A stretch of DNA of 46,509 nucleotides from Vicugna vicugna (lineage: Eukaryota), in the NCBI GenBank assembly GCA_013265495.1, contig MU058066.1, positions 1 through 46,509 on the forward strand. The letters run 5' to 3'. The notes below the pieces were generated by a model that was not told the DNA's origin, did not search any database, and worked only from the letters and a program-made list of their open reading frames with translations. Below, piece after piece: positions 1 to 46,509 of this stretch. Each line of letters begins with the position of its first letter. Within the stretch, counting starts at the first letter, position 1. Position numbers and translations under genes: made by a program.

Positions 1-1484
1 GCAGGATGTGGACTCAGACAGGCTTCCCAGGTGGCTGAGATGCCATCACTTATGAAGAAGCACTGGCGTGAAATAAAAGTCCTGCAAGTGCTCAGAGGTG
101 GCCACACATCTCCTGTGCAAAAAGGTCAGTCAAGGGGACATAGAGTCCCCAAGTTTACTCCCCTGTGAAGTCGACTTTGGCTACTCTCTGAATACCTTTA
201 CTGAACTGATTTGCTTTGACTTCTAGGGTTGATAGAAACTAAGAACCAAAGTAGGGCTCCTGCATCTCCTGTTGCACCTGAATTCGTCAGTGTTCCTCCC
301 TCTAAGAGCCGCGCAAGCACAGGTTCAGTTAAGCCCACGTTCCTGAAGGAGCGCTGACCACGGAGGTGTCCGGGCTGCAGCCCACTGAGCACCCAGGTCC
401 GTTTCCTCATCAGCAAGTAGCCTCCTTCGCCCAGGTCTGCAGCCCTGCTCTCTTCTGTGATCTTTTCTCATTCTGTTTTGTGGCTCATAGAATTCATTCT
501 CATCTTAAAGGGCTACATTTTAAAACCTGTCTGCTGTAACCTACTTGATATTTTCTGTGAAGTAGGTAAGTCTGCACAGCACATTAACTTTTCAAGATCT
601 CACTTCTCATTATCATGCAATTATGAATGGAAAATAAAACATGAAAAAAGTCATGATAAATTGAATACAGTAATACGTTTATTAAGGTTAGGATGCATGG
701 ATAGACTTTTCTTAACAGAGGATAATTTAACAGCAACCAATTTACAGAATTGATAGTACTACCACATTTCAGCAAACTGAGGACATCAGGAAACTTATAG
801 TTATTTGCTCTGAAAAACCCATTAAATGATCTATCACCTGTGCATAACGTATCACGAATGCAGCTAAGGAAGTTCATAGGAAAAGCGTGATCCCCTCCCC
901 TCTCTGCCCATCCATCTTCCACGAAGCCACAGGCTGTTGCTCACCACACTTGGCATGAGACCTCGAGGCTGCTGCTTCTCCCCCTACATCATAACCGATT
1001 TCAAATGGTGCTAGACAAAAACAGACTCTGAACACCAGGAGAAATCGGTCAGCCTGTGTAAGAGATGGGTCCAGTGGTGCTCCGGGGGGTCCTGCACCTT
1101 GGCAGTGCAGGTGGCAAGTCTGACTTCAGCTGCGCGGCACCTGCAGCTGAACGTTCCAGGGCATCTAGGAGCAGGCGGATGGCGCTGATGTGGGGAGACA
1201 CTCCTCCCGGGACACATACCTCCCCCTTCCCTACTGCAATCCAGTACCCAACCCAGCATTGCCCAGTCACGCGCTCAAAGCCCTGCCAACAGGTTACTGC
1301 TGGCGGCTGCTGCTACCTGTCCTCAGAAAGATAACAACGCCTGGCCCTGCTCAATCCACCGAGTTCACTTTGGACACAACCCAGTCCCTGCACTGTTGCC
1401 TCCACAACCCAACATACTCAAGAGTGACTTTGCTTTTCAAGTTCATCCTTTTTTGAGCCAGCTCAGGCGGCAGGAGGAGGAGAG
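1..1484. repeat. Segmental tandem duplication, copy A of the overlap (matches 45010-46509)
   Basis: Starts GCAGGATGTGGACTCAGACAGG, as at 45010, and is colinear to ...CAGGAGGAGGAGAG. Scattered substitutions (5 in the first 165 nt) and small indels. Near-identical ORF translations (198..416 vs 45135..45431; 457.. vs 45472..). Confidence 0.98.
979..1066 (-). ncRNA. MIR29C: pre-miR-29c hairpin (mature miR-29c-3p at 992-1013)
   Basis: Reverse complement reads ATCTCTTACACAGGCTGACCGATTTCTCCTGGTGTTCAGAGTCTGTTTTTGTCTAGCACCATTTGAAATCGGTTATGATGTAGGGGGA, the 88-nt mir-29c precursor as I recall it. Mature sequence TAGCACCATTTGAAATCGGTTA. Confidence 0.98.
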
Positions 1485-1542
1485 CCGGTCCCACAAGCGG
1501 CAGCTCCTCTGCAGTCGGCCCTTGGCTGTGCTGCAATTCTTA

Positions 1543-1623
1543 CTCCTAAAACACTGATTTCAAATGGTGCTAGATACAAAGATGGAAAAATCTAAGCCAC
1601 CATGTGAAACCAGCTTCCAGAAG
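1543..1623 (-). ncRNA. MIR29B2: pre-miR-29b-2 hairpin (mature miR-29b-3p at 1550-1572)
   Basis: Reverse complement reads CTTCTGGAAGCTGGTTTCACATGGTGGCTTAGATTTTTCCATCTTTGTATCTAGCACCATTTGAAATCAGTGTTTTAGGAG. It lies ~0.5 kb from miR-29c, as in the known cluster next to CD46. Confidence 0.98.
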
Positions 1624-2312
1624 AAGAGGATCTCACTGAAGAAAGAAGGGAGATGCGATCAGAAGACCCAGCCTCTGCCCCGAGCAGTAACGTCTTCTTG
1701 CAGTTCCACTTGTGATGGGACATAATATACGGACCCATTAGAAAGGCAGGGAGGAGACTTACACAGTAATTTCCAAAGAACATGAAAGTCAAAGCTGACA
1801 ATTCACATAGACAGTCGAAATACAGAAACTCACAAATTCTAGGTTAATTTATTCAATTCCACAACCAGTCCCTACAAATTATTATAGAGTAAAATAAAAC
1901 AATCAAAGCTATTATTAAACTGTGTTAACATTGACATCCGTGTTGCCCTGCTTTGTACAGTATTTCACAGTATCCAAATCATTTTCTAATATTATCTCAC
2001 TTCATCAGGAAACAAGCTCCCCGTCTGCCCAGGAGGCTCCAGCCTCATTAATTGAGTTATAGTCATTTTACAATGCTGTGTCAAATTTCAGTGTAGAGTA
2101 CAATTTTTCAGTTATACATGAACATAATTATATTCATTGTCAGTTGTTTTTCGCTGTGAGCTACCACAAGATCTTGTATATATTTCCCTGTGCTGTACAG
2201 TATAATCTTGTTTATCTATTCTACATATTCCTGTCAGTATCTAATATTTTGAAATCCCAGTCTGTCCCTTCCCACCCTCCGCCCCCTTGGCAACCACAAG
2301 TTTGTATTCTAT

Positions 2313-2456
2313 NNNNNNNNNNNNNNNNNNNNNNNNNNNNNNNNNNNNNNNNNNNNNNNNNNNNNNNNNNNNNNNNNNNNNNNNNNNNNNNNNNNNNNNN
2401 NNNNNNNNNNNNNNNNNNNNNNNNNNNNNNNNNNNNNNNNNNNNNNNNNNNNNNNN
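2313..2456. other. Assembly gap (N run); further gaps at 2889-3102, 24723-24797 and 45175-45274
   Basis: Runs of N in the sequence. Confidence 1.
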
Positions 2457-2579
2457 CTTCTTCTTCTTCTTCTTCTTCTTCTTCTTCTTCTTCTTCTTCT
2501 TCTTCTTCTTCTTCTTCTTCTTCTTCTTCTTCTTCTTCTTCTTCTTCTTCTTCTTCTTCTTCTTCTTCTTCTTCTTCTT
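2457..2579. repeat. (CTT)n/(GAA)n microsatellite, about 41 visible units, abutting a gap
   Basis: Pure CTT repeat. Confidence 0.99.
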
Positions 2580-4167
2580 TTTAGATCCCACATATGAGCG
2601 ATCTCATATGGTATTTTTCTTTCCCTTTCTGGCTTACTTCACTTAGAATGACATTCTCCAGGAACATCTATGTTGCTGCAAATGGCGTTATGTTGTCGGT
2701 TTTTATGGCTGAGTAGTATTCCATGGTATAAATGTACCACTTCTTCTTATCCAGTCATCTCTTGATGGACATTTCGGCTGTTTCCATGTCTTGGCTATTG
2801 TAAATAGTGCTGCTATGAACATTGGGATGCAAGTATCTTTTTGAAGTAGGGTTCCTTCTGGATATATGCCCAGGAATGGGATTCCTGGNNNNNNNNNNNN
2901 NNNNNNNNNNNNNNNNNNNNNNNNNNNNNNNNNNNNNNNNNNNNNNNNNNNNNNNNNNNNNNNNNNNNNNNNNNNNNNNNNNNNNNNNNNNNNNNNNNNN
3001 NNNNNNNNNNNNNNNNNNNNNNNNNNNNNNNNNNNNNNNNNNNNNNNNNNNNNNNNNNNNNNNNNNNNNNNNNNNNNNNNNNNNNNNNNNNNNNNNNNNN
3101 NNTGATATTGGGCTTCATGTGTCTATTGATCATTTGTATTTCTTCCTTGGAGAATTGCTTGTTTAGGTCTTCTGCCCATTTTTGGATTGGGTTCTTTGCT
3201 TTTTACTTATTAAGTTGTATGAGCTGCTTATATATTCTGGAGATGAGGCCTTTGTCAGTTTTATTTGCAAAAATTTTCTCCCATTCCTAGGTTGTCGTTT
3301 TGTTTTATTTATGGTTTCCTTTGCTGTACAGAAGCTTGTAAGTTTCATTAGGTCCCATTTGTTTATTCTTTATTCTTGAACTTAATTATAGTGTAATTGA
3401 GGGCAGGTGGGAATCCTAGACAATATTTCTGCATAGAAGAGGGTCATTATTGACTGTACAACATATAAAACTTGGGTGGAGATGGGACAACACCTGTTCT
3501 GCAAGAGGACGGGTGCTTTGATACTTGCTTTGTTTCCTTCACCTCCAGGTGCCTTTAGGGTCTCCATGGAATGGCAGTGGGAGTGGGGTGGGGGAAACTG
3601 GGGATGAACATCCCTGTGGTGCATGTGCCAGACACCTGCATGATTGTGACACCAGCACCATGCTCTCCAGCCCATGAGATGAGAAAACAACTCTTTCCCC
3701 ATGAATGACCTTTGTTGGGAGATGCAGGTAGTCTTTTTCAAAGTGGTGCTCTGTATCTGCTTGATTCTGAGGTTGTAGGGTGTTTCCTCAAAGGGGTCGA
3801 TTCTGTGGAACAATCAGAAGTATACAGGCTGTTCAGTATGCTACATTCCAGCCTGAACCTTTAAAACAGTATATTGAACTCTACACCTAGTCCTAAATTC
3901 TGTTTCTTTCATGGGAAAATCATGTGGAAACCTCTAGAACTCTTCAGTGGCATTGCGCATATAAACACAGATGCCCAGTTTGGTTCAATGGTGAATTATT
4001 CTTGTTATGAATGGTGAGTTGGGAGCACTGTCTCTGGAATGTGAGTTCCAGAACAGCAATGTCAACTTCCCACTCAGTCTTAGATAAGCAAACCAGACAG
4101 ACTATTAACATCTGTACTTCAAAAAAGAAGCAATAAGACTTCTGGGTAGAACAACTATATGGCAATA

Positions 4168-6335: not shown

Positions 6336-7269
6336 AAGTTGAGGGTACTGGCCTACCAATATGTTTACTCACATTGATTGACCTTTTTATTCTTTGGCAA
6401 CTAATTGCAAGAAATTGTCAGCTCCTTTTGTTTGCTCTTTAATACCTGTCCTGTTACTTTTCTTTTAATTGTCATACAGATTTACTTGCAATTCTACAAA
6501 TAAATCTTGCTTACTGCTAATTTTCCAGCTATGTTTGGGAGATTGTTTCAACAGAAAATATTTTCCCTTTATCCATTTCATCTAACCAATACCTTACCAT
6601 CGCAAGTCTAATGACATTCACTGTTTCCAAGAGTTTGGTACCTAATGCTCCCCTGTCCTTGTCTTTTTCATTCATTTAGTTGTCAAGGGCAATAAAACAT
6701 TTAGTTGCTCAAGGGCAAGGGCCCCACAGAGTTGAGACCCAAAATGATAATGACGCGGTGTTAACAGCTTACCTTCCCCAGGGGTGCTGTCCTAGGAGAA
6801 GAGGGAGACTAGTTGACATTAGCTGCTGGGAGAACAAAGGCCAAACCTCTCGTGATCCTGAAATCTATCGGGCCATGAGAGACTTCAGGAGCAGATCACT
6901 CCCACGGAAATCTCAACTCTATTCCCGAATTACGCCTGATTAATGCCAAATACTGAGCAGGGGCCCAGGACCAAAGTGGAGTCCTGAGGGGTGTCTGCCC
7001 CATCGGTGACCCGCTGCCCTGGGCGCCAGGTTTCTCTTTTCAGGTCAATGCACTCCATTCTTTAATCCAACATTCTGGAAAAAGACAAAGATGACCTCGC
7101 CAGCCGTAGATTGCTTTCTACCTTCCTGCATCAGGGGGAAGTCTGTTTACAAAGCAGCAGGGAACCAGCCACTTCCCTAAAGGGGTTTCAATGTTCCCAT
7201 AGATTTGCTGAGGGAGGAGCCAGAGACGGGCCCCATGAGGAAGTCTCAAAGCTGTCCTCGCGCAGTAAG

Positions 7270-7516: not shown

Positions 7517-7637
7517 ATGAGAGCATCTTATGCCCCTCGCAAGGAGCCTCCATCCTGCCCCAAGAGTCCCCCTTTTCCTTGGCGCTTCGTGGGGATTCTT
7601 TTGCTAGCCCTAGTGCTACCAATACACATGATCTCTG
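7517..7637 (+). CDS. CD46: CD46-like exon 1, signal peptide MRASYAPRKEPPSCPKSPPFPWRFVGILLLALVLPIHMIS
   Basis: AAAATGA start, long n-region plus hydrophobic core resembling bovine/porcine CD46 leaders, phase-1 donor G|GTAGGA at 7638. Confidence 0.92.
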
Positions 7638-15951: not shown

Positions 15952-16230
15952 AATTTGTTGTTTTCTGCTTTCTCTAGAGATTTTTACACATTTTAAGGTC
16001 TGTTTTCTGCTACAACAATGATGATTTTCTTATGCAAAACTAGATTTTAGATATCAATACATTTATTTTTCAAGCTGTGAGAAAGCTCCAGGGAATCTTT
16101 TCTTGATGATTGGTTGCTGTTTTAAGTTTGGCCTCATAATAGTTAAAGTAATATTTCATCATTAGAATTTTGATCTTGATTTAAATGTTTGAAACTGGTA
16201 TTAAAAATGAATTTGAAATTTTTCTTTTAG

Positions 16231-16330
16231 AATCATCATGTTTAAGGCCAGAAATAAAAAATGGTGATGTATTCCCCCGGGGTGTATCATTTTCGTTGGG
16301 AACAGAGATTCACATTTATTGTAAAAAGGG
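16231..16330 (+). CDS. CD46: CD46-like exon, first half of CCP2: (E)SSCLRPEIKNGDVFPRGVSFSLGTEIHIYCKKG
   Basis: TTTCTTTTAG acceptor, GG|GTAAGT phase-2 donor, 100 nt, C..P.I.NG...F..G.....C..G sushi motif. Confidence 0.93.
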
Positions 16331-16689
16331 GTAAGTAAATTGCTCCTTAGATGAAATAAGTTAAATGTTATGATTTCTTTGCTTCTCAGCTAAAAGCTGA
16401 TTTCATTTTACTTTCTAGGAGACAAGATATTCTTGTAGCCAGACAGCTCTGGGGCTTTTTAAGGAGACTGAAAAGATGTGTAATTAATAGAAATTTAAAT
16501 TGAAGAAAAGTGAAATTGTATACTTACTATATGTAGTATTAAGCCTATTGAAAGCATCAAAACTGTAGTAATCATGGTGACTTTATCCTTAACCACAAAG
16601 TGCATCCTATTTAAAATGGCCAACTCTCAAAGCTGAAGGAGGACTCACCAAATGTTGCATTGTAGAAGTTCTCTATTTCCTTACTTATC

Positions 16690-20342: not shown

Positions 20343-20428
20343 TTATTACTTAAAAGGAATAGAAGCTCTAACTTGTATTGCTGTTGGAGATAATATACAG
20401 TGGAATTACAAGTACCCAATATGTGAAA
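20343..20428 (+). CDS. CD46: CD46-like exon, second half of CCP2: (G)YYLKGIEALTCIAVGDNIQWNYKYPICE
   Basis: Polypyrimidine-TAG acceptor, A|GTAAGT donor, 86 nt as in CD46 exon 4, GYYL.G....C.......W....P.CE motif. Confidence 0.95.
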
Positions 20429-20457
20429 GTAAGTAAATTCTCACTTTAGAATTTAGA

Positions 20458-21499: not shown

Positions 21500-21697
21500 A
21501 GATTTCATGTGGACTGCCTTCAAACATAAAAAATGGAAAATATACCAATAGCTCCAAGAATGTATTTCACTATAAAGAATAAGTGACTTATAGTTGTAAT
21601 CTGTTAAATAGACCAGATCAATATTCACTTGTTGGAGAGAGCGAGCTTACTTGTTCTGCACATGGCAATTGGAGCAGTGAAGCTTCTAAGTGTAAAT
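21500..21697 (+). pseudogene. CD46: CD46-like CCP3 exon with in-frame stop: KISCGLPSNIKNGKYTNSSKNVFHYKE*VTYSCNLLNRPDQYSLVGESELTCSAHGNWSSEASKCK
   Basis: 198 nt, phase 1-1, all four Cys and the Trp present. TAA at 21580-21582. The donor is a weak T|GTAATA. Confidence 0.95.
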
Positions 21698-27087: not shown

Positions 27088-27185
27088 GAAGGAAGGAAGA
27101 GAGGAAGGAAGGAAGGAAGGAAGGAAGGAAGGAAGGAAGGAAGGATAAAAGAAAGGAGAGAGGGAAGGAGGGAAGGAAGGAAGGA
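27088..27185. repeat. (GGAA)n-rich purine tract within an L1 ORF1-like relic (~26860-27520)
   Basis: Visible GGAA repeats. Confidence 0.9.
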
Positions 27186-28226
27186 AACAAGAGAGGGAGA
27201 AAGAAAAGGAGTCAGCGAGAGAGTAAAAGGTATTATATTGAGGACATACCTACCTAACCACACCTTACCCAGGCTGACTGCTCTTAAGGACCTGTGAAGA
27301 ATAGAAGACAGTAATTTCTGCTAATGTGCTGAAAGAAAAATAAAGCACTTCAGCTAGAATTCTCTGTCAAGGAGAAACCTTTCAAAACTGAAGAGGAAAT
27401 AAAAACAGTTTTAGATAAGCAAAAGCTGAAAAAATTCGTCATTAGCTGACCTGAACCCAAGGATTGATAAGGAAGTCCATGTACTTGATGGAAATTCAGA
27501 TCCACAGAAAAGGAGGAAGAACACGCTTCTGGTTTAAAAGGCTTTATGATATCTGGCCCTCATCTATTGCTCACATTTATTCTGATAAGACGTTCTCTGG
27601 AACTCACTGCCCAGCCCAGTGTTTTTTGGTTTTGGTTTCTTTCTTTTCCAACTTCTGCAAAAGTAATCCTCAAGTCAATCTAGAGGGCACGACCTGTGTT
27701 TTACTTCTGAAGAAGTAGAGTAGAGTGGGGAATACCAGAGTACACCAGCGTGAAGCCTAAGCATTTTGCATGGCTGGATTTTTCAACTTTTAAGTTTGAG
27801 TATTTAAAGTATTACCTTCTCCAAAAAGTCTTTGCTACCTTTCTAAAAGAGCAGGGAACTCTAACTAGTGTCACCATGATCTTTAAAAAAACAGTCCTAG
27901 AGCTAGAGTATCAAAAGTTGCATTTGAACTTACCTCCAATTTGTATCTGATAGTCAGATCTTTCTTAAAACTTGTCAGTAATGGAAAAAAAATTAGGAAA
28001 GACAATAAACTATAGTGGCAGTCTGCTCTAGGTGAAAAAACATTAGATTTCTGTAAATCTTTTTGCCTAGAATTCAAATGCATAAATAAAGTCTTTTTTT
28101 TTTTTTCAATTAGCATCTTGCCTTTCATTCCTTGCCTCTTTCTTCCCACGGGAAATTACTGCTTGGCACTAGTTTTTCTATGTGAAATTACCTTTCTTTT
28201 AATTCTGAAATTTCTCCACTTTTCAG

Positions 28227-28409
28227 TGGTCAAATGTAAACCTCCAGTACTTGAACATGGAAAAGCAATATCAGAAATTAGAGAAGTTTTTACCTACAAA
28301 GACGTGGTGATACTTGAATGCCTCCAGGGTTTTTACCTTAATGGCAGCCATGCAGTCTTCTGTGGTGGTGAAAATACTTGGGAACCTGAGATGCCGAAGT
28401 GTATTAAAG
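28227..28409 (+). CDS. CD46: CD46-like CCP4 exon: VKCKPPVLEHGKAISEIREVFTYKDVVILECLQGFYLNGSHAVFCGGENTWEPEMPKCIK
   Basis: TTTTCAG acceptor, G|GTACAA donor, 183 nt, intact sushi domain (within ORF 28118..28459). Confidence 0.97.
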
Positions 28410-28816
28410 GTACAACTGTTTGTCTTTTTTTTTTCCTGTCTTTTAACTTTCTCTTTTAGTTCTTATTTTGTTCACATTGATAAGAATAAGTGAAAAGAAG
28501 CAACCTTAGTACTTAACTCGGACATGTATCCACTTCCATGGCAGATACATGACAAAATTTACATACAATTCTGCTGCTGTGGTTTCGCATGCTGTTAGAG
28601 AGTCAGCACATTGCTTGTTAGCACATTACACAGGTGTATTAATACCTCTTGTTCAGTATTTTAATGTATAAAAAGAGATAGGAATCACTTTTCAGAATAA
28701 ATTGAAGCATGGGCATTTTTACCTTGAAATAGGTCAAAAATGAGAGGCATAATTCATATAAATGAGAGGAAAGCAATAATCCCAAGTGGTTGATCCTACA
28801 TTATTTTGTTTTTCAG

Positions 28817-28861
28817 TGCTGATTCTTCTCAATACAACACTTCTAGTTTCATGCCATTCAG
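28817..28861 (+). pseudogene. Degenerate STP-A-like exon with a dead donor (VLILLNTTLLVSCHS)
   Basis: Good acceptor TTTTTCAG, 45-nt length, TGCTG...CATTCAG ends like CD46 STP-A, but followed by ATATAG rather than GT. Confidence 0.7.
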
Positions 28862-29019
28862 ATATAGTAATTTCCTGTTTATAGTTTACAAAAAAATCTT
28901 TTAAATTCATGTGATTTACAGTCATCATTTTTAGTAACAAAAAGATAAAGAATATACTTACAGTCATTTTAGTTGTGATACTTAGTAATTCTCAAAGCAT
29001 TTGCCATAGTCCGCAGATA

Positions 29020-29190
29020 TCAACTGTGTGTAAACTTGGGCAAGTTATGTAAACCTTAAATGTGTTTACTTACATGTAGGATGATCTAATACCTTTCTCA
29101 CTGGGTAATAGCAAAGTTGGAATGGAGGGCATTTGAAACACTTAGCAAAGTACCTAGCATCTAGAAAGCTCTTAAAGGTAGCTCCCATGA
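29020..29190 (+). mobile_element. MIR SINE relic
   Basis: CTGTGTGTAAACTTGGGCAAGTTA...AACACTTAGCAAAGTACCTAGCATCTAG. Confidence 0.6.
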
Positions 29191-30632
29191 CTTAACAGCA
29201 TCCCCTTTACAGAGTATCTTGCAGGTCCAGGACTATGGTTCATTTTCCAGACTGCAATCAGTTGGCTTCATTTTACAAACTGGGAAATTTCTGTTGTCAC
29301 CTGATTAAAACCAGTATTTCTACCACACACACCATTCTGCACCGCATAGAGTTATTATTTTTCTCTCTCCTGGGCATTCTTATTTGGCAACAGAGGGTAA
29401 ATCTCATAGCCACTGAATGGCAGGAAAAGTCTTTATTTATTGAAATGAACTGGGTGATTTCTGGACGGGACTATTGATCAGCTGCTCTGCTTAAGTCTTG
29501 AGAGACTATTTGAATGTGATGGAAGGAATTATCTTCCTGATTTTAGGGATTGCACCTCTGGCTTCTCTTTACAGCAGCAGCAGAAGCACGAGACAAGAGC
29601 AAGAATGGGTAGAGCACGAGCCTGGGCAGAGGGTACTCAGGGTGCTGGGGGGGCTCTGCTCACTCAAGTAACATCACTGCTGTGAGTGTACTTCCCTGTT
29701 TAATGAAGGTGTGGAACTCACAGCTCCATGACTGGCTTTTGATGTGTTTGTCTTTTTCCTGTTGTCCTAATATTTTCAAGGATTGAGGGGAATTATTCAT
29801 ATTAACATGGTAATTAGAGCTCCTTTTTAGAACAGCTGTAAAGCTGGTACCCCGTATCGCCCTAGAGTACCGGGGTGAGGTGAGGGCTGTGAAGATTTGG
29901 GGGGAAAGAGATGATTTTTATTGGACCATATATAAAGAAGTTATACTCATTGACCCATCCCTGTTAGTCACAGGGTCCTAGTGAGAATATGCACTACAAT
30001 ATACTATGTTTGTTGATATGCTGTTTTGAAAAAGTGGACCATAAACACTTCTTAAGGACTTAGAAAACATTGATACAATTTAGTGTTTGAAGAAGAGAGA
30101 AATTGTTTGTGAGAAAAAAACTTATGAAAAGAAGAAAATACAGGGATTTAAAAAAAATCAAAATCAACTCTCCTTATGAGATTGCTAATCATTTTTTTAT
30201 CATCAGTTTGAGACAGACTATACCAAAAGCATCAGTAGCACCATAAATGATGTTAGGTCAGGTTTAAATGTGCTAATACGAAAAAATGTCTAAGAAATAC
30301 TATGCCAAAAGACAAACACAGAAAAAGATACAAATTATGGAATGTAATAGTGCCTGACCCTTTTAAAGAATACTGAGTTTTATGATTTATAGTTGACTAC
30401 AGGGATTTCCATTATAAAATACAAAGTTGTGTTGTACATTTTATGCATACATCCTCACCTACATGTGCAAATATACACTTAGACTAAATTCCCAGGAGTA
30501 GACTTGCAAAGTTCTGAGTGTATTGTATTTTTTATTTGAGAAATAATTAACCTTTTTCTAAAATTAAAAAAAAATAGATACATAATTTTGTGTTGATAAG
30601 ACTGATGCATTGAGCCAAATTTAATTTTGCAG

Positions 30633-30680
30633 GTTACAAGCCTACCTATCCAAAGAAGCCTCCAGTTTCAAACTATCCAG
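30633..30680 (+). CDS. CD46: CD46-like STP-C exon: GYKPTYPKKPPVSNYP
   Basis: TTTTGCAG acceptor, G|GTTCAG donor, 48 nt. KPPVSNYP matches CD46 STP-C. Confidence 0.95.
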
Positions 30681-31229
30681 GTTCAGTAACTCTTTATCCT
30701 TCGTATATTGTTAAGAACTTTATAAGGTGATGAGTACAAAATCATGTCTTGCTTAATTTGCATTTCTTTAATTATCAGTGAGATTGAACTTTTTCTTATC
30801 TACATTTATTTATTATATTCTTTCTTACTTTTTCTATTAGGTTTCTTAAATATTTTTCTTGTTGATTTGAACTTATAAATTAAAGCCCTTTTAAGATGAA
30901 GTGAACTTTTTTCCTACGTTTATATTTTAGCCTTATTTTCACTAGTCGGTTTTTTTTTATGATTTTTATACTGTACTATTAGATGTAGGTTGCTTTTTAT
31001 AAATTTTTGTTATATGAGTGGTACACAAATATAATTTTGTAAATTTTCAAACATTGCAGAAGTATGCAGAGTGAAATTAGATCCCCTGATCTTTCTCTAG
31101 CCTATTACCTGAGTTAATCACTGTTAATAGTTTAGAGTGTCTCTATGTATTTCTGTAGATCAAAATCCTTATATGTGTAATTATACATTTAGTTTGGTGG
31201 TTTTTTCCTCTCTTTTTCTTATACAGAAA

Positions 31230-31510
31230 TGTTTTTAAGTGCCAGCACCATTTTCATTCCAACCAGTAATACACAAAGTTTCCAATTTCTCAACTTCTTT
31301 GCTAACATATATTGATTTCTGGGTTTTGATAATAATGATTATAATTTATGTTAGTTAATTGACTTGAAGCAATATCTCATTGTGGCTTTTATTTGCATTT
31401 CCCTAAGTTAGTGATGTTGAGCATCGTTTCATGTGAAGATATACAAATTGCCAAGAAGCCATTTCTCTTTGGAGAAATGTTTATTCAATCCCTTGCCTGT
31501 TTGTGAAATG

Positions 31511-31544
<34 letters not shown>

Positions 31545-32590
31545 ATTGAGTTTTAGAAGTTTGTTACATATTTTGGATATTAATCCCTTATAAGGTAGTT
31601 GTAAAACTTCACTGTTTTGCATGTGGATATCCAGTTTTCCAAAAATTGTTTGTTGAAAAGACTGCCCTTCCCACTGAGTGTTCTTTGTACCCTTGTGAGC
31701 GATCATTTGTCCATATAAGTGAGGGTTTATTTATGGATTCTAATTTAGAGCATTGGTCCGTGTGTATGTCTTTCTGCTAGTAGCATTCTGCTTGATTATT
31801 GTAGCTTTTTAGTAAGTTTTGAAATCAGGAAATGTAAGTCCTCTCAACTCTGCTCTTCTTTTTCAAGATTTTCTTGGCTATTGCTAGCCCCTTGAGATTC
31901 CATATGAAGTAAATTGGATTTTTCTATGTAAAATGTATTTTCAAGATGGTGATAAGAAGTATAATCAATCTGTAAATTACTTTGTGTCATATTAACATCT
32001 TAACAATATTAAATCTTCCAATCTATGAACACAGGATGTCTTTCCATTTATGTCTTCTTCCCTTTTTTTCAATGTTTTTATAATTTTTGTGGACAAGTTT
32101 TTCAACCTTCTTGGTTCAATGTATTTCTGAGAATTTTTTGATGCTATGAAATGAAATTGTTTGCTTAATTCCCCGTTTGGATTGTTCATTATTAGTGTAT
32201 AGAAAGATAACTTATTTTTGTGTGTTGATTTTGTATCCGTTAACTTTGCTGAATTTATATATTAGTTCTAATAGTTGTGTGGGAGTGTTTCTGTGCATGT
32301 GTGTGTGATCTTTTTAGAGATTTTTATGTAAAAGATCATGTCATCTATAAACAGACATTATTTTATTACTTCTTTCCCATTTGGATATTTTTTATTTTTA
32401 TTTCTTAGCAAATTATTCTGACCCAAACTTCCAATATTATGTTGAATAGAAGTGGAGTGGCAGAATTATGCAGCCTGTCTTATTCCTGACATTAAGTGAA
32501 AAAAATTTTAATATTTCAACATTGAGTTTGACATTAGCCATGAGTTTTTCTATCCATGGCCTGTGTGTTGAGGAGTCTTTCTATTCCAGA
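31230..32590 (-). mobile_element. Degenerate L1 ORF2 fragments including (GTT)n at ~31513-31546
   Basis: GCATGTGGATATCCAGTTTTCC, TTTGAAATCAGGAA, CTTCCAATCTATGAACACAGGATG. Confidence 0.8.
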
Positions 32591-32908
32591 GTAATCTCTA
32601 AATCATTTTTAAGTACTCCTCTTTTAATTTTAAGTAGAATCACATTGAATTCCAGGCTAATTTTGAATATACACTGATGATTAGTTTGTTTGCCGTACCA
32701 CAGAATTAGTGACAAGGAACATCAGTGGACAGGAGGAAGAATGGCATTGAATATAAATTTATAATGTTTGACGATGCAGCTTTTAATGAGAGCCATTAAT
32801 ATAATGTATAAGGAATATTAAATTATAATTATAAATTATAATTGTGAATGTGTAGATCTTCAAGACTTATTTAGTCTTTTTTTTTAACCTAGTTCCATTT
32901 TTTTCTAG

Positions 32909-32959
32909 GATATCCCAATCCCAAAGAATTACTGTCACTTGAAGACTTTGAGGAATTAG
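32909..32959 (+). CDS. CD46: CD46-like juxtamembrane (U) exon: GYPNPKELLSLEDFEEL
   Basis: TTTTCTAG acceptor, G|GTATTA donor, 51 nt, GYP.P.E start typical of CD46. Confidence 0.92.
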   Translation, partial: DIPIPKNYCHLKTLRN

Positions 32960-33470
32960 GTATTATTTTAATTATTAACAACCCCACATTATGAGACCTT
33001 AGAGTTAGTTCTACATGGAAATATCATGTTCTAATCATTTGTAGGTAGGGAAGAAACAATGTGTCACAATTAGTAATAATTGACATTTATAGTTATTTTA
33101 GTAGTGCAGACACCATGACAAATGTAAGTGGCAATTTGCATAGATGCACATAGGCCATTTTCTTTAATCTAGTGAATTCTAACTGTCTTAGTAACCTGTA
33201 CTAACTACCCTGACATGGTGGCTAGAGCACAAAACAGTGAAAAATGAGGTTCCTGTTAAGAGTTTCACAGGGTGGATCCTAACCCTGAAAACTGTTTACA
33301 AGGGTTCTGTGATCAAAATGACTTGGTTGCACTAGCAGTCATGCCAAAATTATATTGCCAAACCTTTTTTTTGCTGTAGTGTTTAGATGATCTGATCAAA
33401 ATCAAAGCATAGTTGCTCTTTAGGACCCATACATGCTCAATGTCTTCAACACTGTTCATTTTTTTCTCAG

Positions 33471-33506
33471 ATGTAGGAAGCTTTGCTGTGTATATCCTAA
33501 CAGTAA
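33471..33506 (+). CDS. CD46: CD46-like TM1 exon: DVGSFAVYILTV
   Basis: TTTTTCTCAG acceptor, 36 nt, A|GTAAGT donor at 33507. A second GTAAGT starts at 33503. Confidence 0.9.
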
Positions 33507-34001
33507 GTAAGTATCCCAAATTTTTATATCATTTAAATCATAATGTAGTATAAAGAAATGCATTATTTTCTCAATGATTTTTCATTTGCTATAGTTTTAA
33601 TAGCTTGAAATTAAGTAAAAACAGTCTAGAAAAACCCGACCTTTTATGATACAGCACCACCGTGCTGGTGACGGTACATGCTTTTTTATTCTGTATATCC
33701 ACTTGGTAATAAGCAGTAAAAAATAAATTTTTTTTCAAGATGAGTAGTCATGCGAGTCTGTTTCTTGAATATGCTTTTGATTATTTCCTAAATTAAACAA
33801 GGAGTTGGACCTACTCTGAACTGTTTTAGTGACTTCCAGGGAACTGGATTTAGATACTGAAGGGTCAAGATGGAATATCAATGTTTAAATAAAATAACAT
33901 TTTCTGACCATGGAAATGTAGCTAACATTTATTTCTGCTGCTAGGTTTGGAATCTTGGTAATTAGTTAGTGACATGTCACTTGTTTCCTGTTTTCTTTCA
34001 G

Positions 34002-34239
34002 TTGTTGCCATTTTACTAGTTTTGGTCTGCATGTACAGAAGTCTTCGAGGAAGGAAGCAGCAGGAGAAGGAGAAGAAAGAAGAGGAGGAAAAAGAGAAGA
34101 AAGAGAAGGAAGAGAAGGAGAAGAAAGAGAAGGAGGAGAAGGAAAAGAAAGAGAAGGAGGAGAAGGAAAAGAAAGAGAAGGAGGAGAAGGAGAAGAAAGA
34201 GAAGGAGGAGAAGGAGAAGAAAGAGAAAGAGCAGAAACG
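34002..34239 (+). CDS. CD46: CD46-like TM2/anchor exon expanded by an E/K repeat: IVAILLVLVCMYRSLRGRKQQ-EKEKKEEE-(EKEKKEKE)6-QKR
   Basis: TTTCTTTCAG acceptor, CG|GTAAAC phase-2 donor, 238 nt, open frame (ORF 33974..34243). Confidence 0.92.
34064..34231 (+). repeat. Coding 24-nt x7 all-purine minisatellite (GAGAAGGAGAAGAAAGAGAAGGAG consensus)
   Basis: Seven 8-codon units with mostly synonymous GAA/GAG and AAA/AAG variation. Confidence 0.95.
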
Positions 34240-38144: not shown

Positions 38145-38217
38145 GAAAAGAGAAGTTACTGCTAGACCCACTGCTCACCAGAAAAGGCCAACCAGCCCAT
38201 CAGTACGGAAGCACTAA
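38145..38217 (+). CDS. CD46: CD46-like last coding exon (CYT2-type tail): (R)KREVTARPTAHQKRPTSPSVRKH*
   Basis: Strong acceptor (TTTTGTCTTGTCTTACAG), phase 2 matching the TM2 donor, 23 further codons to TAA, the length of CD46 CYT2. Confidence 0.88.
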
Positions 38218-39250: not shown

Positions 39251-39252
39251 TC

Positions 39253-41563: not shown

Positions 41564-41569
41564 AATAAA
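41564..41569 (+). terminator. Candidate polyadenylation signal of the CD46-like gene
   Basis: AATAAA at the end of a long AT-rich 3'UTR-like stretch, with a GT/T-rich tract ~40 nt downstream. Other AATAAA sites exist upstream. Confidence 0.5.
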
Positions 41570-42499
41570 ATGTAGCTTTGAGAAGTTTTTATTCATGATA
41601 ATGAGTTTATTTCTGTGTGTTTTATCCCAAATCAGAGTATACTTCTACTTGGGGCCCCTCTTCTGTAAAGACTCCCCTCCCATAATCACCACTCCTGTCC
41701 CTCACATCTCAGAGCCTTAACTGTGTCCAGGCATCTCCCCCACCACATTACCTACAGCCTGAAGTCCAAGTTTCTTTCATGATACTTGAAGGATTTGTAC
41801 CATTAAGTCCCCTTTTCTTCCCAAGCTCTGTTCCTTACAGCTCACATATGGGTGAAGCATAAAATTGAGGTCTGTGGTCCATGAACTATTTTTCCTACCC
41901 TCTGGTTTATAGGCCAGCAGAAAGTGACAAAGTTGCCTTAAGTATGGACCTAAATGAGAAAGTTACCAACACTGACTGTTGATTTCATAGCCCAAGAAAA
42001 CCTGCATGAGGTGGTAAACATCCTATTAGCAGTGAAGCCAATTATGTATCTATCATTCACAACTTGAATGTAGTTTTTAGAAACAGAACTATTGTAAGAC
42101 ACACAAGAAACCTTGTGAGGGATTATCAGAAATAAGCAGGAGACCTGGCATCCTGGTGCTTAGGGCCTGTGGCTTCACTGAGAAGTTTGGAGACTAGTGT
42201 CATTTAGATGAGCACTGTATGAATATAGTACACAGGAAAGTGATCAGGCACCTGATCACTCATCACCACCTGGAAAGGGCCCAAGGAAAAATATTCCTTT
42301 AATTCTTATTGATATGGACCCAATATATGGAGAATCCATGGGTAGGATTCCATAGAAACATGAATCGCAAAATTTAGTGTGTAGGTGAATCACATGGTGA
42401 TCTCGGTAAAATGCAGATTCTAAATCAGTCAGTCTCAGGTGGGGCCCAAGGTTCTGCATTTCTATGGATTTCACACACTGGTCTGTGGAGGCTTTATAA

Positions 42500-43050
42500 A
42501 GGCCTCCTGAGATGCTGGAGTCGTAATACCTGCAAACTGTGAATGTCGCCTTATATGCAAAAGGTCTTTGGAGATGTGATCTTGGATGGGGGGATTATCC
42601 TGGATTATCCAGGCGGGGCCCTGAATGTAATCACACTTAATCCTTACCAGAAGAAGGCAGAGAGAGATTTGACTATTGCAGAAGGCAACGGGACCACTGA
42701 AGCAACACCCTACAGTGCTGGCCTTGAAGATGGAGGAAGGGGCTGCAAGACAAAAAATGCAGCTCTGGAAGCTGGAAAAGGCAAGGAAACTGATTCTGTG
42801 CCAGTACATCTGGAGGGAGCATGGCCCTGTCTGTAACTTGATTCCAGACTCTGACCTCCAGAACTGAAAGAATAGAGGTGTGCTGTTTTAGACGCTGTGA
42901 TTGTGTGAATGATCTTGGTCTCCCCAGCCTCCAAACTATGAGAAATAAATCTGCTGTTTATAAGCTGCCCTGCCTGTAGTATTATATTAAAGCAGCCCAA
43001 AGAGATTAAGACAGACACCAAGCTTGCTGTAATTTGTGACAGCAGCCACA
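42500..43050 (+). mobile_element. MaLR (MLT1-type) LTR relic(s)
   Basis: GATTATCCTGGATTATCCAGGCGGGGCCCTGAATGTAATCAC, GCTGGAAAAGGCAAGGAAAC, CTGACCTCCAGAACTG, and a second 3' end CCAGCCTCCAAACTATGAGAAATAAAT. Confidence 0.85.
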
Positions 43051-43314
43051 GCGATCTAATGCACCAATACTGGGGATCCTCAGGCCACACTTGGAGTAGA
43101 AGCAAGACCACAGAGGAGGGGCCCTCCACCCAGACTGCACAGTAGAATCACCTGGGGAAATGGTCAAACAAAAAAATGAATGTCCACAACCTATTCCTGC
43201 AAAAATATAATCAGAACCTGTAGGGGTGGGACATGAAAATCTCTATTCTAATGGCTACTTGGATGAGTGTAATCAGAGGTCGGTGCAGCAGTAGCACATT
43301 AGAATAAACACAAA

Positions 43315-44591
43315 ATATAACTTTTCTTGTACTCATGCAAAACTCTTAAATTGCCCCAAAATATGGACACACTAGTCTGCTGGGTACCCCCACAAAACTG
43401 AACACCAGCTTCTCAAAACGCAGGGCTGGGCCAACATCTTACATGAAGACATTTCATGTTCAAGATTTAGCACATTGTTTCCCCTAAGTTGGTGAAAGAT
43501 TCCTGGACTCACATTTACTAGGACTCACCAGCACTTAGTTCCAGGGATGGGAATTCTTTGCTGGCACAACATGCATGAGGCTGGCTGTGCCTTCAGTCCA
43601 ACTCCCTCTCCACTTACATGCTTACAGTAAATAAGCGGCAAAACTTACGTAAGTAGGACCCACGCCTGACAAAGCATCTTCTACCTGGGTGGGGAGAACG
43701 GCCTCGAAAGCCAGGCTCAAGATGTCTCCGGGAGAAACATTCTGCTTAACAAGTTACTAGGGAAAACCAGCTGGAATGGGCATTTTAGGTAAAGAACTGT
43801 CAGCCTCCAGATGAACAAAGAAAAATAGTTTTGTGGGAGTGGCACCTCAGTTACCTGGGGAGTGCATTTTGCTTCTCATGACCTACCCATGTGTACTGTG
43901 TAAAGTTAAGCATTCATGGGAGCACCAGAAACTACTTTTATGGAAAAGGGGCCCCATATAACTTTTCTTGTACTCATGCAAAACTCTTAAATTGCCCCAA
44001 AATATGGACACACTAGTCTGCTGGGTACCCCCACAAAACCAAATACCAGCTTCTCAAAACGCAGGGCTAGGCCAACATCTTACATGAAGACATTTCATGT
44101 TCAAGATTTAGCACATTGTTTCCCCTAAGTTGGTGGAAGATTCCTGGACTCACATTTACTAGGACTCACCAGCACTTAGTTCCAGGGATGGGAATTCTTT
44201 GCTGGCACAACATGCATGAGGCTGGCTGTGCCTTCAGTCCAACTCCCTCTCCACTTACATGCTTACAGTAAATAAGCGGCAAAACTTACGTAAGTAGGAC
44301 CCACGCCTGACAAAGCATCTTCTACCTGGGTGGGGAGAACGGCCTCGAAAGCCAGGCTCAAGATGTCTCCGGGAGAAACATTCTGCTTAACAAGTTACTA
44401 GGGAAAACCAGCTGGAATGGGCATTTTAGGTAAAGAACTGTCAGCCTCCAGATGAACAAAGAAAAATAGTTTTGTGGGAGTGGTTACCTGGGGAGTGCAT
44501 TTTGCTCCTCATGACCTACCCATGTGTACCCATGTATAAAATTAAGCATTCATGGGAGCACCAGAAACTACTTTTATGGAAAAGGGGCCCC
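43315..44591. repeat. ~640-bp direct tandem duplication (43315-43955 / 43956-44591)
   Basis: ATATAACTTTTCTTGTACTCATGCAAAACTC at 43315 and 43956. Both units end GGAAAAGGGGCCCC. Several substitutions and an 8-nt indel. Confidence 0.98.
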
Positions 44592-45009
44592 AAGTCATTG
44601 TTTTTGTGTGTTGACACCAAACTCCATCTTCTAGCACTTTCTCATTTGGGGGCTGGCGTCAGAACAACCTGCTGGCAGAATCCGTGCCTTACTCACTTTA
44701 TTGGAAATTCCTAGGCTGGAGCCTGGGACACGTAGATGCATCAAAAGTTGTTCAGTTTGTTACATCTGACCCAAAGTGGTTATGCCAACAGGTCTACATT
44801 TACCTTAGTGGAGAAGTGATAAAACAATTCAGGGTCCTAACTATTCCCGCCGCCACATCCTGGGGACATGTGACTCTTCACACAACAGCCTGAAATAGCG
44901 CTGCGGCTGCAGGGTTGAGGGGGGTCCCATTCACTGGGGAGCTAAACCAGCAGTGCTTTACCCATCCCACCCTCACTGCACCGGGCAGGGCAGGCATCTG
45001 GGAAGACTG

Positions 45010-46509
45010 GCAGGATGTGGACTCAGACAGGCTTCCCAGGTGGCTGAGATGCCACCACTTATGAAGAAGCACTGGCGTGAAATAAAAGTCCCACAGGTGC
45101 TCAGAGGTGGCCACACATCTCCTGTGCAAAAAGCTCAGTCAAGGGGACATAGAGTCCCCAAGTTTACTCCCCTGNNNNNNNNNNNNNNNNNNNNNNNNNN
45201 NNNNNNNNNNNNNNNNNNNNNNNNNNNNNNNNNNNNNNNNNNNNNNNNNNNNNNNNNNNNNNNNNNNNNNNNNNGGCTCCTGCATGTTGCACCTAAATTC
45301 GTCAGTGTTCCTCCCTCTAAGAGCCGCGCGAGCACAGGTTCAGTTAAGCCCACATTCCTGAAGGAGCGCTGACCACGGAGGTGCCGGGGCTGCAGCCCAC
45401 TGGGCACCCAGGTCCGTTTCCTCATCAGCAAGTAGCCTCCTTCGCCCAGGTCTGCAGCCCTGCTCTCTTCTGTGATCTTTTCTCATTCTGTTTTGTGGCT
45501 CATAGAATTCATTCTCATCTTAAAGGGCTACATTTTAAAACCTGTCTGCTGTAACCTACTTGATATTTTCTGTGAAGTAGGTAAGTCTGCACAGCACATT
45601 AACTTTTCAAGATCTCACTTCTCATTATCATGCAATTATGAATGGAAAATTTAACATGAAAAAAGTCATGATAAATTGAATACAGTAATACATTTATTAA
45701 GGTTAGGATGCATGGACAGACTATTCTTAACAGAGGATAATTTAACAGCAACCAATTTACAGAATTGATAGTACTACCACATTTCAGCAAACTGAGGACA
45801 TCAGGAAACTTATAGTTATTTGCTTTGAAAAATCCATTAAATGATCCATTACCTGTGCATAACATATCACAAATGCAGCTAAGGAAGTTCATAGGAAAAG
45901 CGTGATCCCCTCCCCTCTCTCTGCCCATGCATCTTCCAGGAAGCCACAGGCTGTTGCTCACCACACTTGGCATGAGACCTTGAGGCTGCTGCTTTTCCCC
46001 CTACATCATAACCGATTTCAAATGGTGCTAGACAAAATCAGACTCTGAACACCAGGAGAAATTGGTCAGCCTGTGTACGAGATGGGTCAAGTGGTGCTCC
46101 GGGGGGTCCTGCACCTTGGCAGTGCAGGTGGCAATCTGACTTCAGCTGCGACGGCACCTGCAGCTGAACATTCCAGGGCATCTAGGAGCAGGCAGACGGC
46201 GCTGATGTGGAGAGACAGTCCTCCCGGGACACATACCTCCCCCTTCCCTACTGCAATCCAGTACCCAACCCAGCATTGCCCAGTCATGCGCTCAAAGCCC
46301 TGCCAAAGCCCCACCAGGTTATTGCTGGTGGCTGCTGCTACCTGTCCTCAGAAAGATAACAACGCCTGGCCCTGCTCAATCCACCGAGTTCACTTTGGAC
46401 ACAACCCAGTCCCTGCACTGCTGCCTCCACAACCCAACACACTCAAGAGTGACTTTGCTTTTCGAGTTCATTCTTTTTTGAGCCAGCTCAGGCGGCAGGA
46501 GGAGGAGAG
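45010..46509. repeat. Segmental tandem duplication, copy B of the overlap (matches 1-1484)
   Basis: Colinear with the window start on both sides of the 100-N gap. Confidence 0.98.
45996..46083 (-). ncRNA. MIR29C: Second pre-miR-29c copy (mature 3p intact at 46009-46030; three substitutions elsewhere)
   Basis: TAACCGATTTCAAATGGTGCTA intact. Differs from copy A at 46038 (A>T), 46063 (C>T) and 46078 (A>C). Confidence 0.96.

Follow-up and report, generated by a model that had tools for sequence, protein, structure and literature searches.

A CD46-type gene between two miR-29 segments

The window (the whole stretch of DNA analysed, 46.5 kb) was an entire unplaced scaffold of Vicugna vicugna (G000:C1349), in which four N gaps separate five contigs, from what looks like a short-read based assembly. 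One CD46-type gene (gene W) was found on the plus strand, between a left (WL) and a right (WR) copy of a segment carrying miR-29b-2/29c hairpins on the minus strand.

Camelid “membrane cofactor protein(-like)” proteins served as tblastn queries to locate the exons of gene W; the signal-peptide exon, CCP2a, CCP2b, CCP3, CCP4, STP, membrane-span (TM) and tail parts were found. Exon 1 (7517-7637), containing the start codon and signal peptide, was open with a GT donor, and identical in 41 of 41 residues to the Vicugna “membrane cofactor protein-like” protein P0008. No CCP1 match was obtained by tblastn in the window: at 15952-15954 the window skips over about 2 kb present in the paralogue C5496 (5021 to 3012), where the CCP1 exon lies at 3027-3218. 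The CCP2a (16231-16331, AG/GT sites) and CCP2b (20344-20430) exons were open, and matched P0008 at 94% (residues 103-137) and 100% (residues 138-166) respectively. The CCP3 exon (21502-21696), 69% identical to residues 149-213 of P0001, was interrupted by an in-frame TAA at 21580-21582. The CCP4 exon (28223-28411; tblastn) was open and matched two Camelus bactrianus “membrane cofactor protein” entries, P0002 (100% over 62 residues) and P0001 (98.4% over 63); its best paralogue within the assembly reached 82% in amino acids. Two STP exons (30632-30682 and 32908-32964) and the membrane-span exons (33470-33505 and 34001 onward) with a Lys/Glu-repeat cytoplasmic tail (to 34237) were open according to tblastn and splice sites, and the last coding exon, with the stop codon, was at 38146-38217 (91% to P0008 residues 461-483).

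The CD46-like gene announced here by a sequence-only reading was thus present as a CD46-type gene on the plus strand, but not as an intact CD46: of the four CCP (Sushi) modules, CCP1 was deleted and CCP3 carried a stop, and the STP stalk, membrane span and cytoplasmic tail were retained in open exons with splice sites. The tail had the Lys/Glu repeats found in the “MCP-like” proteins P0001, P0004 and P0008, unlike that of alpaca MCP P0014, and identity to alpaca MCP isoform X2 was only 49-53% in CCP3 and CCP4. Gene W was rejected as the CD46 ortholog; the best match to the annotated MCP was gene A of scaffold C7314, directly upstream of miR-29 and CD34 (92-100% to alpaca MCP isoform X2 for most exons, range 42-100%). 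Gene W and another gene of the array, G1, matched database “membrane cofactor protein-like” proteins of camelids and whales. A pig MCP-like protein has been reported in sperm and equated with CD46P1 (PMC6715765). Compared with MCP-like/CD46P1, gene W lacks CCP1, has the stop in CCP3 and is bordered by miR-29 segments on both sides. To our knowledge, a human MCP-like pseudogene adjoining miR-29 has not been described.

The miR-29 segments at the window ends

The two ends of the window matched each other in direct orientation (BLASTN search of the window with its left end, E = 0 or 1.7e-75): 1-165 with 45010-45174 (96.97%, 165 columns, no gaps) and 255-1484 with 45275-46509 (95.65%, 1241 columns, 17 gap positions), giving a period of 45,009 bp. 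The recurrence of 1-1484 at 45010-46509, proposed earlier with a few percent divergence plus indels, was therefore reproduced at 96-97% identity. An N gap of 100 at 45175-45274 splits the right-hand match, and the repeat stops at 1484/46509 for no other reason than that the scaffold ends there.

WL (1-2046, minus strand, within contig 1-2312) was 96.4% identical to one segment on scaffold C7314 (Ca, C7314:7399403-7397360) and 89.7% to another (Cb, C7314:7482716-7480694). The left edge of the window is the scaffold end, and the further CD46-type gene proposed earlier to lie just left of it would fall outside the scaffold. WR (43042-46509, minus strand) consists of three parts: 43042-45174, which shares a gap-free contig with the 3' half of gene W; 100 N; and the contig 45275-46509. 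Identity of 43958-45174 to C7314:7400457-7399241 was 97% (44206-44699 being 100% identical to Ca), and 45285-46509 was slightly closer to Ca (91.9%) than to Cb (89.2%). The end contigs with the hairpins (1-2312 and 45275-46509) are both joined to the scaffold only across N gaps.

WL is separated from the rest of the scaffold by repeat-element sequence and two N gaps (2313-2456 and 2889-3102) at 2048-3359, which matched dispersed copies within the window and on C7314; a repeat was also reported at 2457-2579. Beyond it, 3369-4149 was homologous to DNA that lies 1.0-1.45 kb upstream of pre-miR-29b-2, both beside Cb (C7314:7476730-7475963, 83.4%) and beside Ca (C7314:7396641-7396343, 78.6% for 3376-3673). 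This stretch lies in the gap-free contig 3103-24722 together with exon 1 of gene W, and homologues of the miR-29 flanks thus occur within gap-free contigs on both sides of the gene.

CD46-type genes and miR-29 segments across the assembly

Four distinct miR-29b-2/29c segments were present in the assembly: WL and WR in the window, and Ca and Cb on C7314. In the whole-assembly DNA search, window 1-1484 matched C1349 twice, C7314:7397922-7399403 (95%) and C7314:7481232-7482716 (91%), the remaining match being 83 bp of the miR-29a/b-1 locus (C9799). Scanning the assembly with RF00074 gave 9 hits above the threshold, of which C9799 holds 2, the window 3 and C7314 4.

The order on C7314 was CD46-like gene B, miR-29 (Cb), CD46 proper (gene A), miR-29 (Ca) and CD34 (7317266-7319108, after the last miR-29 segment), and B-Cb-A-Ca lay on one scaffold interrupted by gaps of 19, 316 and 287 N. 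Cb and Ca, 83 kb apart (period about 83.3 kb), each followed a CD46-type gene and alternated with the CCP4-type exons at 7582536, 7550154, 7506715 and 7420743. Segments were thus spaced by 45 to 83 kb and interleaved with CD46-type genes. The W unit was collinear with the Cb-A-Ca unit at both ends, genes B and A were also collinear, and direct repeats of collinear whole units were found for both WL/WR and Cb/Ca. The array of CD46 paralogues interleaved with miR-29b-2/29c copies that had been predicted consequently looks real. The further claim that every unit bears miR-29 did not hold: the MCP-like gene G1 directly precedes gene B with no miR-29 segment between, leaving one of the four assembled CD46-type genes without a segment behind it.

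C7314 terminates within the array, and W-type units are linked only via N gaps and orphan contigs. One orphan contig of 5.7 kb (C9442) was 97% identical to window 27095-32838 (97.1% for C9442:1-3000 against 27095-30094) and had a 1-bp insertion in its CCP4 exon; others matched the 5' half of W (C4964, 98%; C227, 94%; C331, 99%). By its sequence, C9442 points to a putative second 45-kb W-type unit, which would fit a further unit adjoining the window.

The same gene order and strands are found in human 1q32 (CD46 - MIR29B2CHG/C1orf132 - CD34): the CD46-type gene and the hairpins are on opposite strands, miR-29b-2 is the first hairpin to be transcribed, and CD34 follows. Human 1q32, however, has one miR-29 cluster and the camelid assembly four segments. 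The human miR-29 host gene MIR29B2CHG/C1orf132 has been placed between CD34 and CD46, with the promoter of the precursor some 20 kb upstream of the hairpins (PMC8268529). Both Cb and WL cease to be homologous to Ca at Ca 7396343, and the co-duplicated DNA upstream of pre-miR-29b-2 amounts to only about 1.45 kb.

Hairpins and seeds

Membership of the mir-29 family was assigned with the RF00074 covariance model (gathering score 46.7 bits). All three mir-29 hairpins of the window passed this score, as did 7 of 7 across WL, WR, Ca and Cb, and the 3p arm of the three window hairpins carried the consensus seed GCACCA. In WL, pre-miR-29c (989-1054, minus strand, 64.7 bits; -34.8 kcal/mol, z -4.5), whose 3p arm fits the Rfam consensus seed, and pre-miR-29b-2 (1548-1618, minus strand, 75 bits, the highest score among the 1q32-type copies of the assembly; -34.7 kcal/mol, z -5.4) both fitted the family consensus, and none of 200 shuffles folded as well as either. 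No other copy had two hairpins in agreement with the consensus. Pre-miR-29c of WR (46006-46071, minus strand, 56.7 bits) was weakened, with one broken pair, G>A in the 5p arm and T>A in the loop, the 3p arm remaining consensus-like; its fold (-27.5 kcal/mol, z -2.3) was equalled by 3 of 200 shuffles. The WR partner of 1548-1618 would lie past the scaffold end.

The miR-29c-type hairpins of Ca and Cb had the seed GCGCCA, not GCACCA. They have three changes to mature miR-29c in common, including the one in the seed, are identical to each other and fold well (-33.9 kcal/mol, z -4.2). Mature miR-29b-2 was unaltered in the three copies that include it. Alpaca skin contains an abundant miR-29c read that bears the consensus seed (PMC3508611, supplementary file 1, row 68), and within this assembly only WL or WR could be its source. 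The variant motif of Ca and Cb was not found in the readable parts of five supplementary files from the alpaca work, the literature searched or metagenome contigs.

Divergence and mosaic structure of the copies

Flanks of the four segments differed at 38 of 1298 sites (WL-WR), 62 of 1860 (WL-Ca), 79 of 1294 (WR-Ca), 115 of 1283 (WR-Cb), 173 of 1843 (Ca-Cb) and 193 of 1846 (WL-Cb). These differences (2.9-10.5%) are too large for alleles, so WL, WR, Ca and Cb are paralogues, as initially proposed, and not haplotypes stitched in tandem (3-10% difference among copies). No window-C7314 match of at least 400 columns reached 99% overall (the best were 96-97%), and at WL 674-920 all four copies differed from one another (95.9% for WL-WR, 84.6-91.4% for the other pairs).

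The copies were also mosaic, with blocks of 99.6-100% identity adjoining blocks of 85-91%. Thirty-six sites at WL 425-1084 join WL and WR against Ca and Cb, and 7 sites at WL 1153-1415 join WL and Ca against WR and Cb; WL 1153-2046 was 99.6-100% like Ca, differing by only about 0.4%. This mosaicism could be due to gene conversion or, equally, to the assembler switching between paralogues, and the assignment of hairpins to loci is therefore not secure. The share of WL words in public runs (0.64-0.71 for DNA, 0.22-0.43 for RNA) is not informative here, since roughly 59% of WL has a match of at least 99% identity in another copy.

Divergence dipped at the hairpins between older copies. The Rfam cores of Ca and Cb differed at 0 of 137 sites, against 183 of 1906 elsewhere (Fisher 3e-6), and those of WL and Cb at 4 of 137, against 195 of 1890 (0.0026), which suggests that the hairpins may have been under selection. 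In the recent copy WR, with 2 differences in 66 core sites against 2.9% in the flanks, there was no signal of constraint.

Discussion

The window is probably one unit of about 45 kb in a camelid CD46-family array at the CD34 end of the RCA locus, in which the miR-29 hairpins were carried along as passengers and the copies have since diverged. Repeated unequal crossing-over is the probable origin of such an array. The block that was copied would reach from sequence before a CD46-type gene to some 1.45 kb past pre-miR-29b-2; since it spans the opposite-strand miR-29c/miR-29b-2 hairpins, these would be copied with it, the distal part of the miR-29 host transcription unit was probably left out, and internal miR-29 copies would be without the ancestral promoter. 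An older duplication may have given rise to the A and B units (9-10% divergence in miR-29 segments, 20-24% in intergenic DNA), and a young one to two W-type units (about 3% divergence, WL vs WR and W vs C9442). Afterwards, the copies would have diverged and exchanged blocks, leaving WL with the consensus, WR with a destabilised miR-29c, and Ca and Cb with a variant that still folds well. Judged from sequence divergence between units (3-24%), the copies are suggested to be younger than the camelid-ruminant split.

It is possible, at rather low probability, that the additional miR-29 genes are active and have been retained, providing more miR-29b/c dosage or, next to consensus-type copies, a new miR-29c seed variant of the Ca/Cb type. 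The divergence valleys centred on both pre-miRNAs, the well-folding variant hairpin common to Ca and Cb, the unaltered mature miR-29b-2 and the alpaca skin read, attributable here only to WL or WR (PMC3508611), are in line with this, as is the expression in cattle of the extra family members bta-miR-29d-3p and bta-mir-29e (PMC4784738, PMC3589390); against it, the variant motif was not found in the sources searched, internal copies retain just about 1.45 kb upstream, WR appears unconstrained, and the Ca and Cb hairpins may be identical through gene conversion, or look more alike than they are through collapse in the assembly. We give a comparably tentative place to the opposite alternative, that a single copy is transcribed and processed, the rest being decaying relics that do not alter miR-29 levels. 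The duplication boundary, far short of the distance to the human promoter (PMC8268529), the weakened WR hairpin, the loss of the consensus miR-29c seed from Ca and Cb, and the damage to gene W and its C9442 counterpart would all be expected of relics, but the hairpin cores of old copies are far better preserved than their flanks, all seven hairpins pass the gathering score, and the syntenic, promoter-linked site is held by Ca, whose changed seed is hard to square with the sole working miR-29c gene.

It is rather unlikely that the seed of camelid miR-29c, a microRNA invariant elsewhere, changed from GCACCA to GCGCCA, with two other mature changes, after duplication of the CD46 region and was kept in Ca and Cb as a predicted new expressed family member with different targets, a product of the growth of a complement and virus-receptor gene family; the variant would then also occupy the ancestral site by CD34, and consensus-type miR-29c would be found only in the young MCP-like unit. 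Least probable of all is an assembly artefact (one CD46 plus miR-29 unit per haplotype, or just the two of C7314, the window being a haplotig or a chimera whose ends were joined through false mate-pair links): the unplaced, gapped scaffold, the end of C7314 within the array, the end contigs with blocks 99.6-100% identical to Ca and the maximum of 0.71 for WL words in any run would agree with it, but the 82% identity of the gene W CCP4 to the nearest C7314 exon and the lack of a long match at 99% mean that no assembled unit has the window as its haplotig, four copies all differ at WL 674-920, miR-29 flank homologues border gene W within gap-free contigs, and B-Cb-A-Ca are on a single scaffold with small gaps only.

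Extra miR-29 loci are likewise found in another cetartiodactyl, the bovine bta-mir-29d and bta-mir-29e, which we take to lie next to CD46. These additional cattle loci are expressed and regulated (PMC4784738, PMC3589390), and conserved TargetScan targets number 0 for bta-mir-29e and 179 for 29c and 29b-2 (PMC3589390), which we read as a hint of a changed seed. The camelid array also resembles a known amplification, in that its tandem units carry hairpins that later diverge, seeds included. That case is primate C19MC, a lineage-specific microRNA cluster amplified by segmental duplication. Unlike C19MC, the camelid unit is centred on an immune/virus-receptor gene, and its microRNA belongs to an ancient, otherwise two-locus family.

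Deeply conserved, miR-29 is encoded in two mammalian genomic clusters and has roles in immunity, fibrosis and ageing; the miR-29b-2/miR-29c cluster is normally single. CD46 is used as a receptor by pathogens, which puts its family under pressure. Under the CD46-family array favoured here, the unusual presence of extra, diverging miR-29 copies is a side effect of CD46-type gene expansion. The coupling of that expansion to miR-29 dosage, as first suggested, would be no simple multiple, since the hairpins differ and so little upstream DNA was kept. For annotation, a warning follows: the copy with both consensus hairpins is on an orphan scaffold only, and the syntenic copy has a mutated seed. If several copies are expressed, camelid miR-29 dosage would be altered, perhaps with a new seed variant; if they are silent, they would be a clean example of hairpins duplicated without their promoter.

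Results and Discussion

Organization of the locus

The assembly (2.03 Gb in 12,405 pieces) contained the window as a complete unplaced scaffold of 46,509 bp (C1349), in which five contigs were joined across N runs at 2313-2456, 2889-3102, 24723-24797 and 45175-45274. BLASTN of the window against its own left end bore out the direct recurrence of 1-1484 at 45010-46509 noticed in the sequence-only reading: identity was 97.0% between 1-165 and 45010-45174 and 95.6%, with 17 gap positions, between 255-1484 and 45275-46509, the 100-N gap being the interruption between the two pieces, and Rfam called three mir-29 hairpins, all on the minus strand (989-1054, 1548-1618 and 46006-46071; miR-29b-2, then miR-29c, in transcript sense). 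The repeat breaks off at 1484/46509 for no other reason than the end of the scaffold. The miR-29b-2/29c segments at the left and right ends are called WL and WR, and the CD46-type (MCP-like) gene between them W. An upstream miR-29 flank homologue (3369-4149) was located 3.4 kb ahead of W exon 1 and the flank from the other side (43042-45174) past the last exon, both in gap-free contigs, so W is flanked on both sides independently of scaffolding gaps.

Two further copies of the left repeat (identity 95% and 91%), separated by 83.3 kb, were found by whole-assembly search on scaffold C7314 (7,585,586 bp), whose end falls inside the array. The RF00074 scan of the assembly gave nine hits above cut-off: the miR-29a/b-1 pair on C9799, the three in the window and two pairs on C7314. 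The order on C7314, in the window orientation, was G1, B, Cb, A, Ca and CD34 (G1, B and A, CD46-type genes; Ca and Cb, miR-29 segments), with CD34 79 kb beyond Ca. A, Ca and CD34 matched the human order of CD46, the miR-29b-2/c host gene and CD34 in the available text of PMC8268529.

No miR-29 remnant was present between G1 and B or in C5496:1-20000 (a scaffold probably carrying the 5' part of G1), and whole-assembly searches with the left repeat and RF00074 gave no miR-29 in C5496:20001-59633. Of the four CD46-type genes in the assembly, then, three are followed by a miR-29 segment. A ~45-kb tandem amplicon had been proposed, each unit carrying extra hairpins, with altered dosage; “each unit” does not hold and “dosage” was also overstated, while the tandem-array structure of CD46-type genes and miR-29 segments is likely to be largely right.

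The CD46-type genes of C7314

Gene A was CD46 proper, most exons being 92-100% identical to alpaca MCP isoform X2 (range 42-100%); at this gene alpaca was nearer than dromedary to the assembly. Gene B was a strongly diverged CD46 duplicate (CCP exons 38-68% at the protein level, 47-68% without CCP2b). Over C7314:7506715-7524893 the identity of its CCP exons to alpaca MCP was 38-68%, against 76-80% in the A/B non-coding flanks; divergence has thus been faster in the exons than in neutral-looking DNA, by positive selection or decay.

G1, an MCP-like gene, was 98-100% identical to the 3' exons of the alpaca model P0008, with one CCP4-like exon broken. About ten tandem units of 2.0-2.7 kb, 81-91% identical to window 29218-31230, were observed in G1 (C7314:7552700-7578485) between the broken and the intact CCP4 exons, with an STP-type exon in each; the alpaca models P0008 and P0009 contain a corresponding Pro/Ala/Asn-rich repeat run. 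Judged from these exons, the units would form an expanded mucin-like stalk of the MCP-like protein. The end of C7314 (7585038-7585586) breaks in the intron ahead of a CCP4-like exon, and the minus strand of C5496:1-14415 holds exon 1, CCP1 and CCP2a of a paralogue, ending just ahead of CCP2b. C7314 and C5496 are probably neighbours, separated by about 3.5 kb of missing sequence.

The window as a separate unit

The best matches between the window and C7314 were 96-97% identical, none of at least 400 columns reaching 99% overall, and the C7314 exon nearest to the window CCP4 was 82% identical (protein). Flank differences between miR-29 segments were 2.9% for WL-WR, 3.3% for WL-Ca, 6.1% for WR-Ca, 9.0% for WR-Cb, 9.4% for Ca-Cb and 10.5% for WL-Cb, and at WL 674-920 all four segments were mutually different. 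The window as filler of a gap inside C7314 was rejected, WL and WR both being non-identical to Cb and Ca, and a haplotig was rejected on the 3-10% divergence.

The orphan contig C9442 (5.7 kb) was 97% identical to window 27095-32838, with a 1-bp insertion in CCP4, and the 5' half of W was matched by C4964 (98%), C227 (94%) and C331 (99%). These four are probably pieces of a second W-type unit; they and the 97% WL-WR identity point to two young W-type units that were inseparable for the assembler.

Gene W

W exons (plus strand) were mapped by tblastn with database proteins and by frame reading. Exon 1 (7517-7637, with a GT donor), CCP2a (16231-16331), CCP2b (20344-20430), CCP4 (28223-28411), the STP, membrane span and Lys/Glu-repeat tail (30632-34237) and the last exon (38146-38217, stop codon at its end) were open. 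The CCP3 exon (21502-21696) contained an in-frame TAA (21580-21582), and the CCP1 exon was absent at the junction 15952/15954, where about 2 kb is present in the C5496 paralogue, its own CCP1 exon included. Exon 1, whose end is in phase 1, joins CCP2a in frame; a CCP3-skipping transcript would be in frame too if the CCP3 and CCP4 exons share this phase. As it stands, W is an MCP-like paralogue and no intact four-CCP CD46, possibly a pseudogene.

The CCP4 exon matched P0002, a “membrane cofactor protein” of Camelus bactrianus, at 100% over 62 residues, and exon 1 was identical to a “membrane cofactor protein-like” protein of Vicugna pacos. Protein matches of this kind assign the window to a camelid. 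The cytoplasmic-tail exon (34001-34237) encoded a long Lys/Glu repeat (EKEKKEKEE...), common to camelid and whale “MCP-like” proteins; alpaca MCP proper is without it. PMC6715765 treats the MCP-like protein of pig and CD46P1 as one.

Hairpins and mosaic copies

Both WL hairpins fitted the Rfam consensus (miR-29b-2, -34.7 kcal/mol; miR-29c, -34.8 kcal/mol), and we take the human precursors to be equal to them. In WR, miR-29b-2 lies past the scaffold end, and miR-29c had a fitting 3p arm, a G>A in the 5p arm that breaks a pair and a T>A in the loop (-27.5 kcal/mol, z -2.3). The miR-29b-2 hairpins of Ca and Cb had an unchanged 3p arm and a G>A in the 5p arm (-34.7 and -29.4 kcal/mol respectively). 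Ca miR-29c showed three mature-strand changes, one at a conserved consensus seed position (-33.9 kcal/mol), and that of Cb was identical (-33.9 kcal/mol).

Per 80 bp, the old copies showed 0-5 differences near both hairpins and over WL 1-480, and 10-20 in the stretches separating the hairpins or lying outside them. In the Rfam cores there were 0/137 differences for Ca-Cb vs. 183/1906 elsewhere (Fisher 3e-6), and 4/137 for WL-Cb vs. 195/1890 elsewhere (Fisher 0.0026), which would be the pattern expected from purifying selection on both copies. The young copy WR showed no core sparing (2/66 vs. 2.9% in flanks). Window 1-480 and 44699-45443, downstream of miR-29c in transcript sense, were 96-99.6% alike in the four copies and contained no hairpin; this block may be a conserved part of the last pri-miRNA exon or a conversion tract.

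At WL 425-1084, 36 informative sites grouped WL and WR against Ca and Cb, at WL 1153-1415 seven sites grouped WL and Ca against WR and Cb, and WR 44206-44699 was 100% identical to Ca. The four segments are mosaics, as would result from gene conversion in the tandem array or from a short-read assembler that jumps between copies where they are identical. As both give mosaics, it is insecure which locus carries which hairpin and whether Ca and Cb are exactly alike; the count of distinct sequences is robust. The share of WL words in public runs (24 rows from 12 studies) was 0.13-0.71 for DNA (14 best, 0.64-0.71) and 0.22-0.43 for RNA; these shares were rejected as evidence for WL or its transcription because Ca, Cb or WR matches about 59% of WL at 99% identity or more, so that the copies are not told apart.

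Duplication boundary and age

Both Cb and WL ceased to be homologous to Ca at position 7396343 of Ca, some 1.45 kb upstream of pre-miR-29b-2; past this point Cb and WL had an additional stretch in common. This is expected if a block was duplicated in tandem and its internal copies now adjoin the 5' flank of the next unit. A 26-kb spacer of the A unit (7449677-7475963), with no counterpart in the B or W units, accounts for much of the 83 kb vs. 45 kb difference. The human precursor promoter lies about 20 kb upstream of the miR-29b-2/c hairpins, according to the available text of PMC8268529. If camelids are like human, this promoter would be retained only by Ca.

The A and B units differed by 20-24% in intergenic DNA. 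At about 2e-9 neutral substitutions per site per year, this would correspond to tens of millions of years, and the 3% divergence of the W-type pair to several million years. The exons closest to W were found in Camelus models and those closest to G1 in Vicugna models, which suggests that both paralogues are older than the split between Old and New World camelids.

Expression and significance

The literature searched gave no description of CD46/miR-29 co-duplication. Presumably bta-mir-29d and bta-mir-29e are placed near CD46 in cattle. Expression of the additional members bta-miR-29d-3p and bta-mir-29e in cattle is described in the consulted portions of PMC4784738 and PMC3589390, and the main text of PMC13197249, on ncRNA copy numbers in mammals, is without mir-29, camel or alpaca. 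The variant miR-29c 22-mer of Ca and Cb gave 0 hits in a metagenome scan and was not found in the searchable literature. In alpaca skin small-RNA sequencing, miR-29c was abundant and the dominant read was a 19-mer with the consensus seed, as far as the accessible text of PMC3508611 goes; the variant motif was absent from five of its supplementary files.

The locus is a further case of an already known phenomenon, in which a microRNA cluster is carried along by lineage-specific segmental duplication. What deserves real attention is the altered miR-29c seed that Ca, the syntenic copy, shares with Cb.
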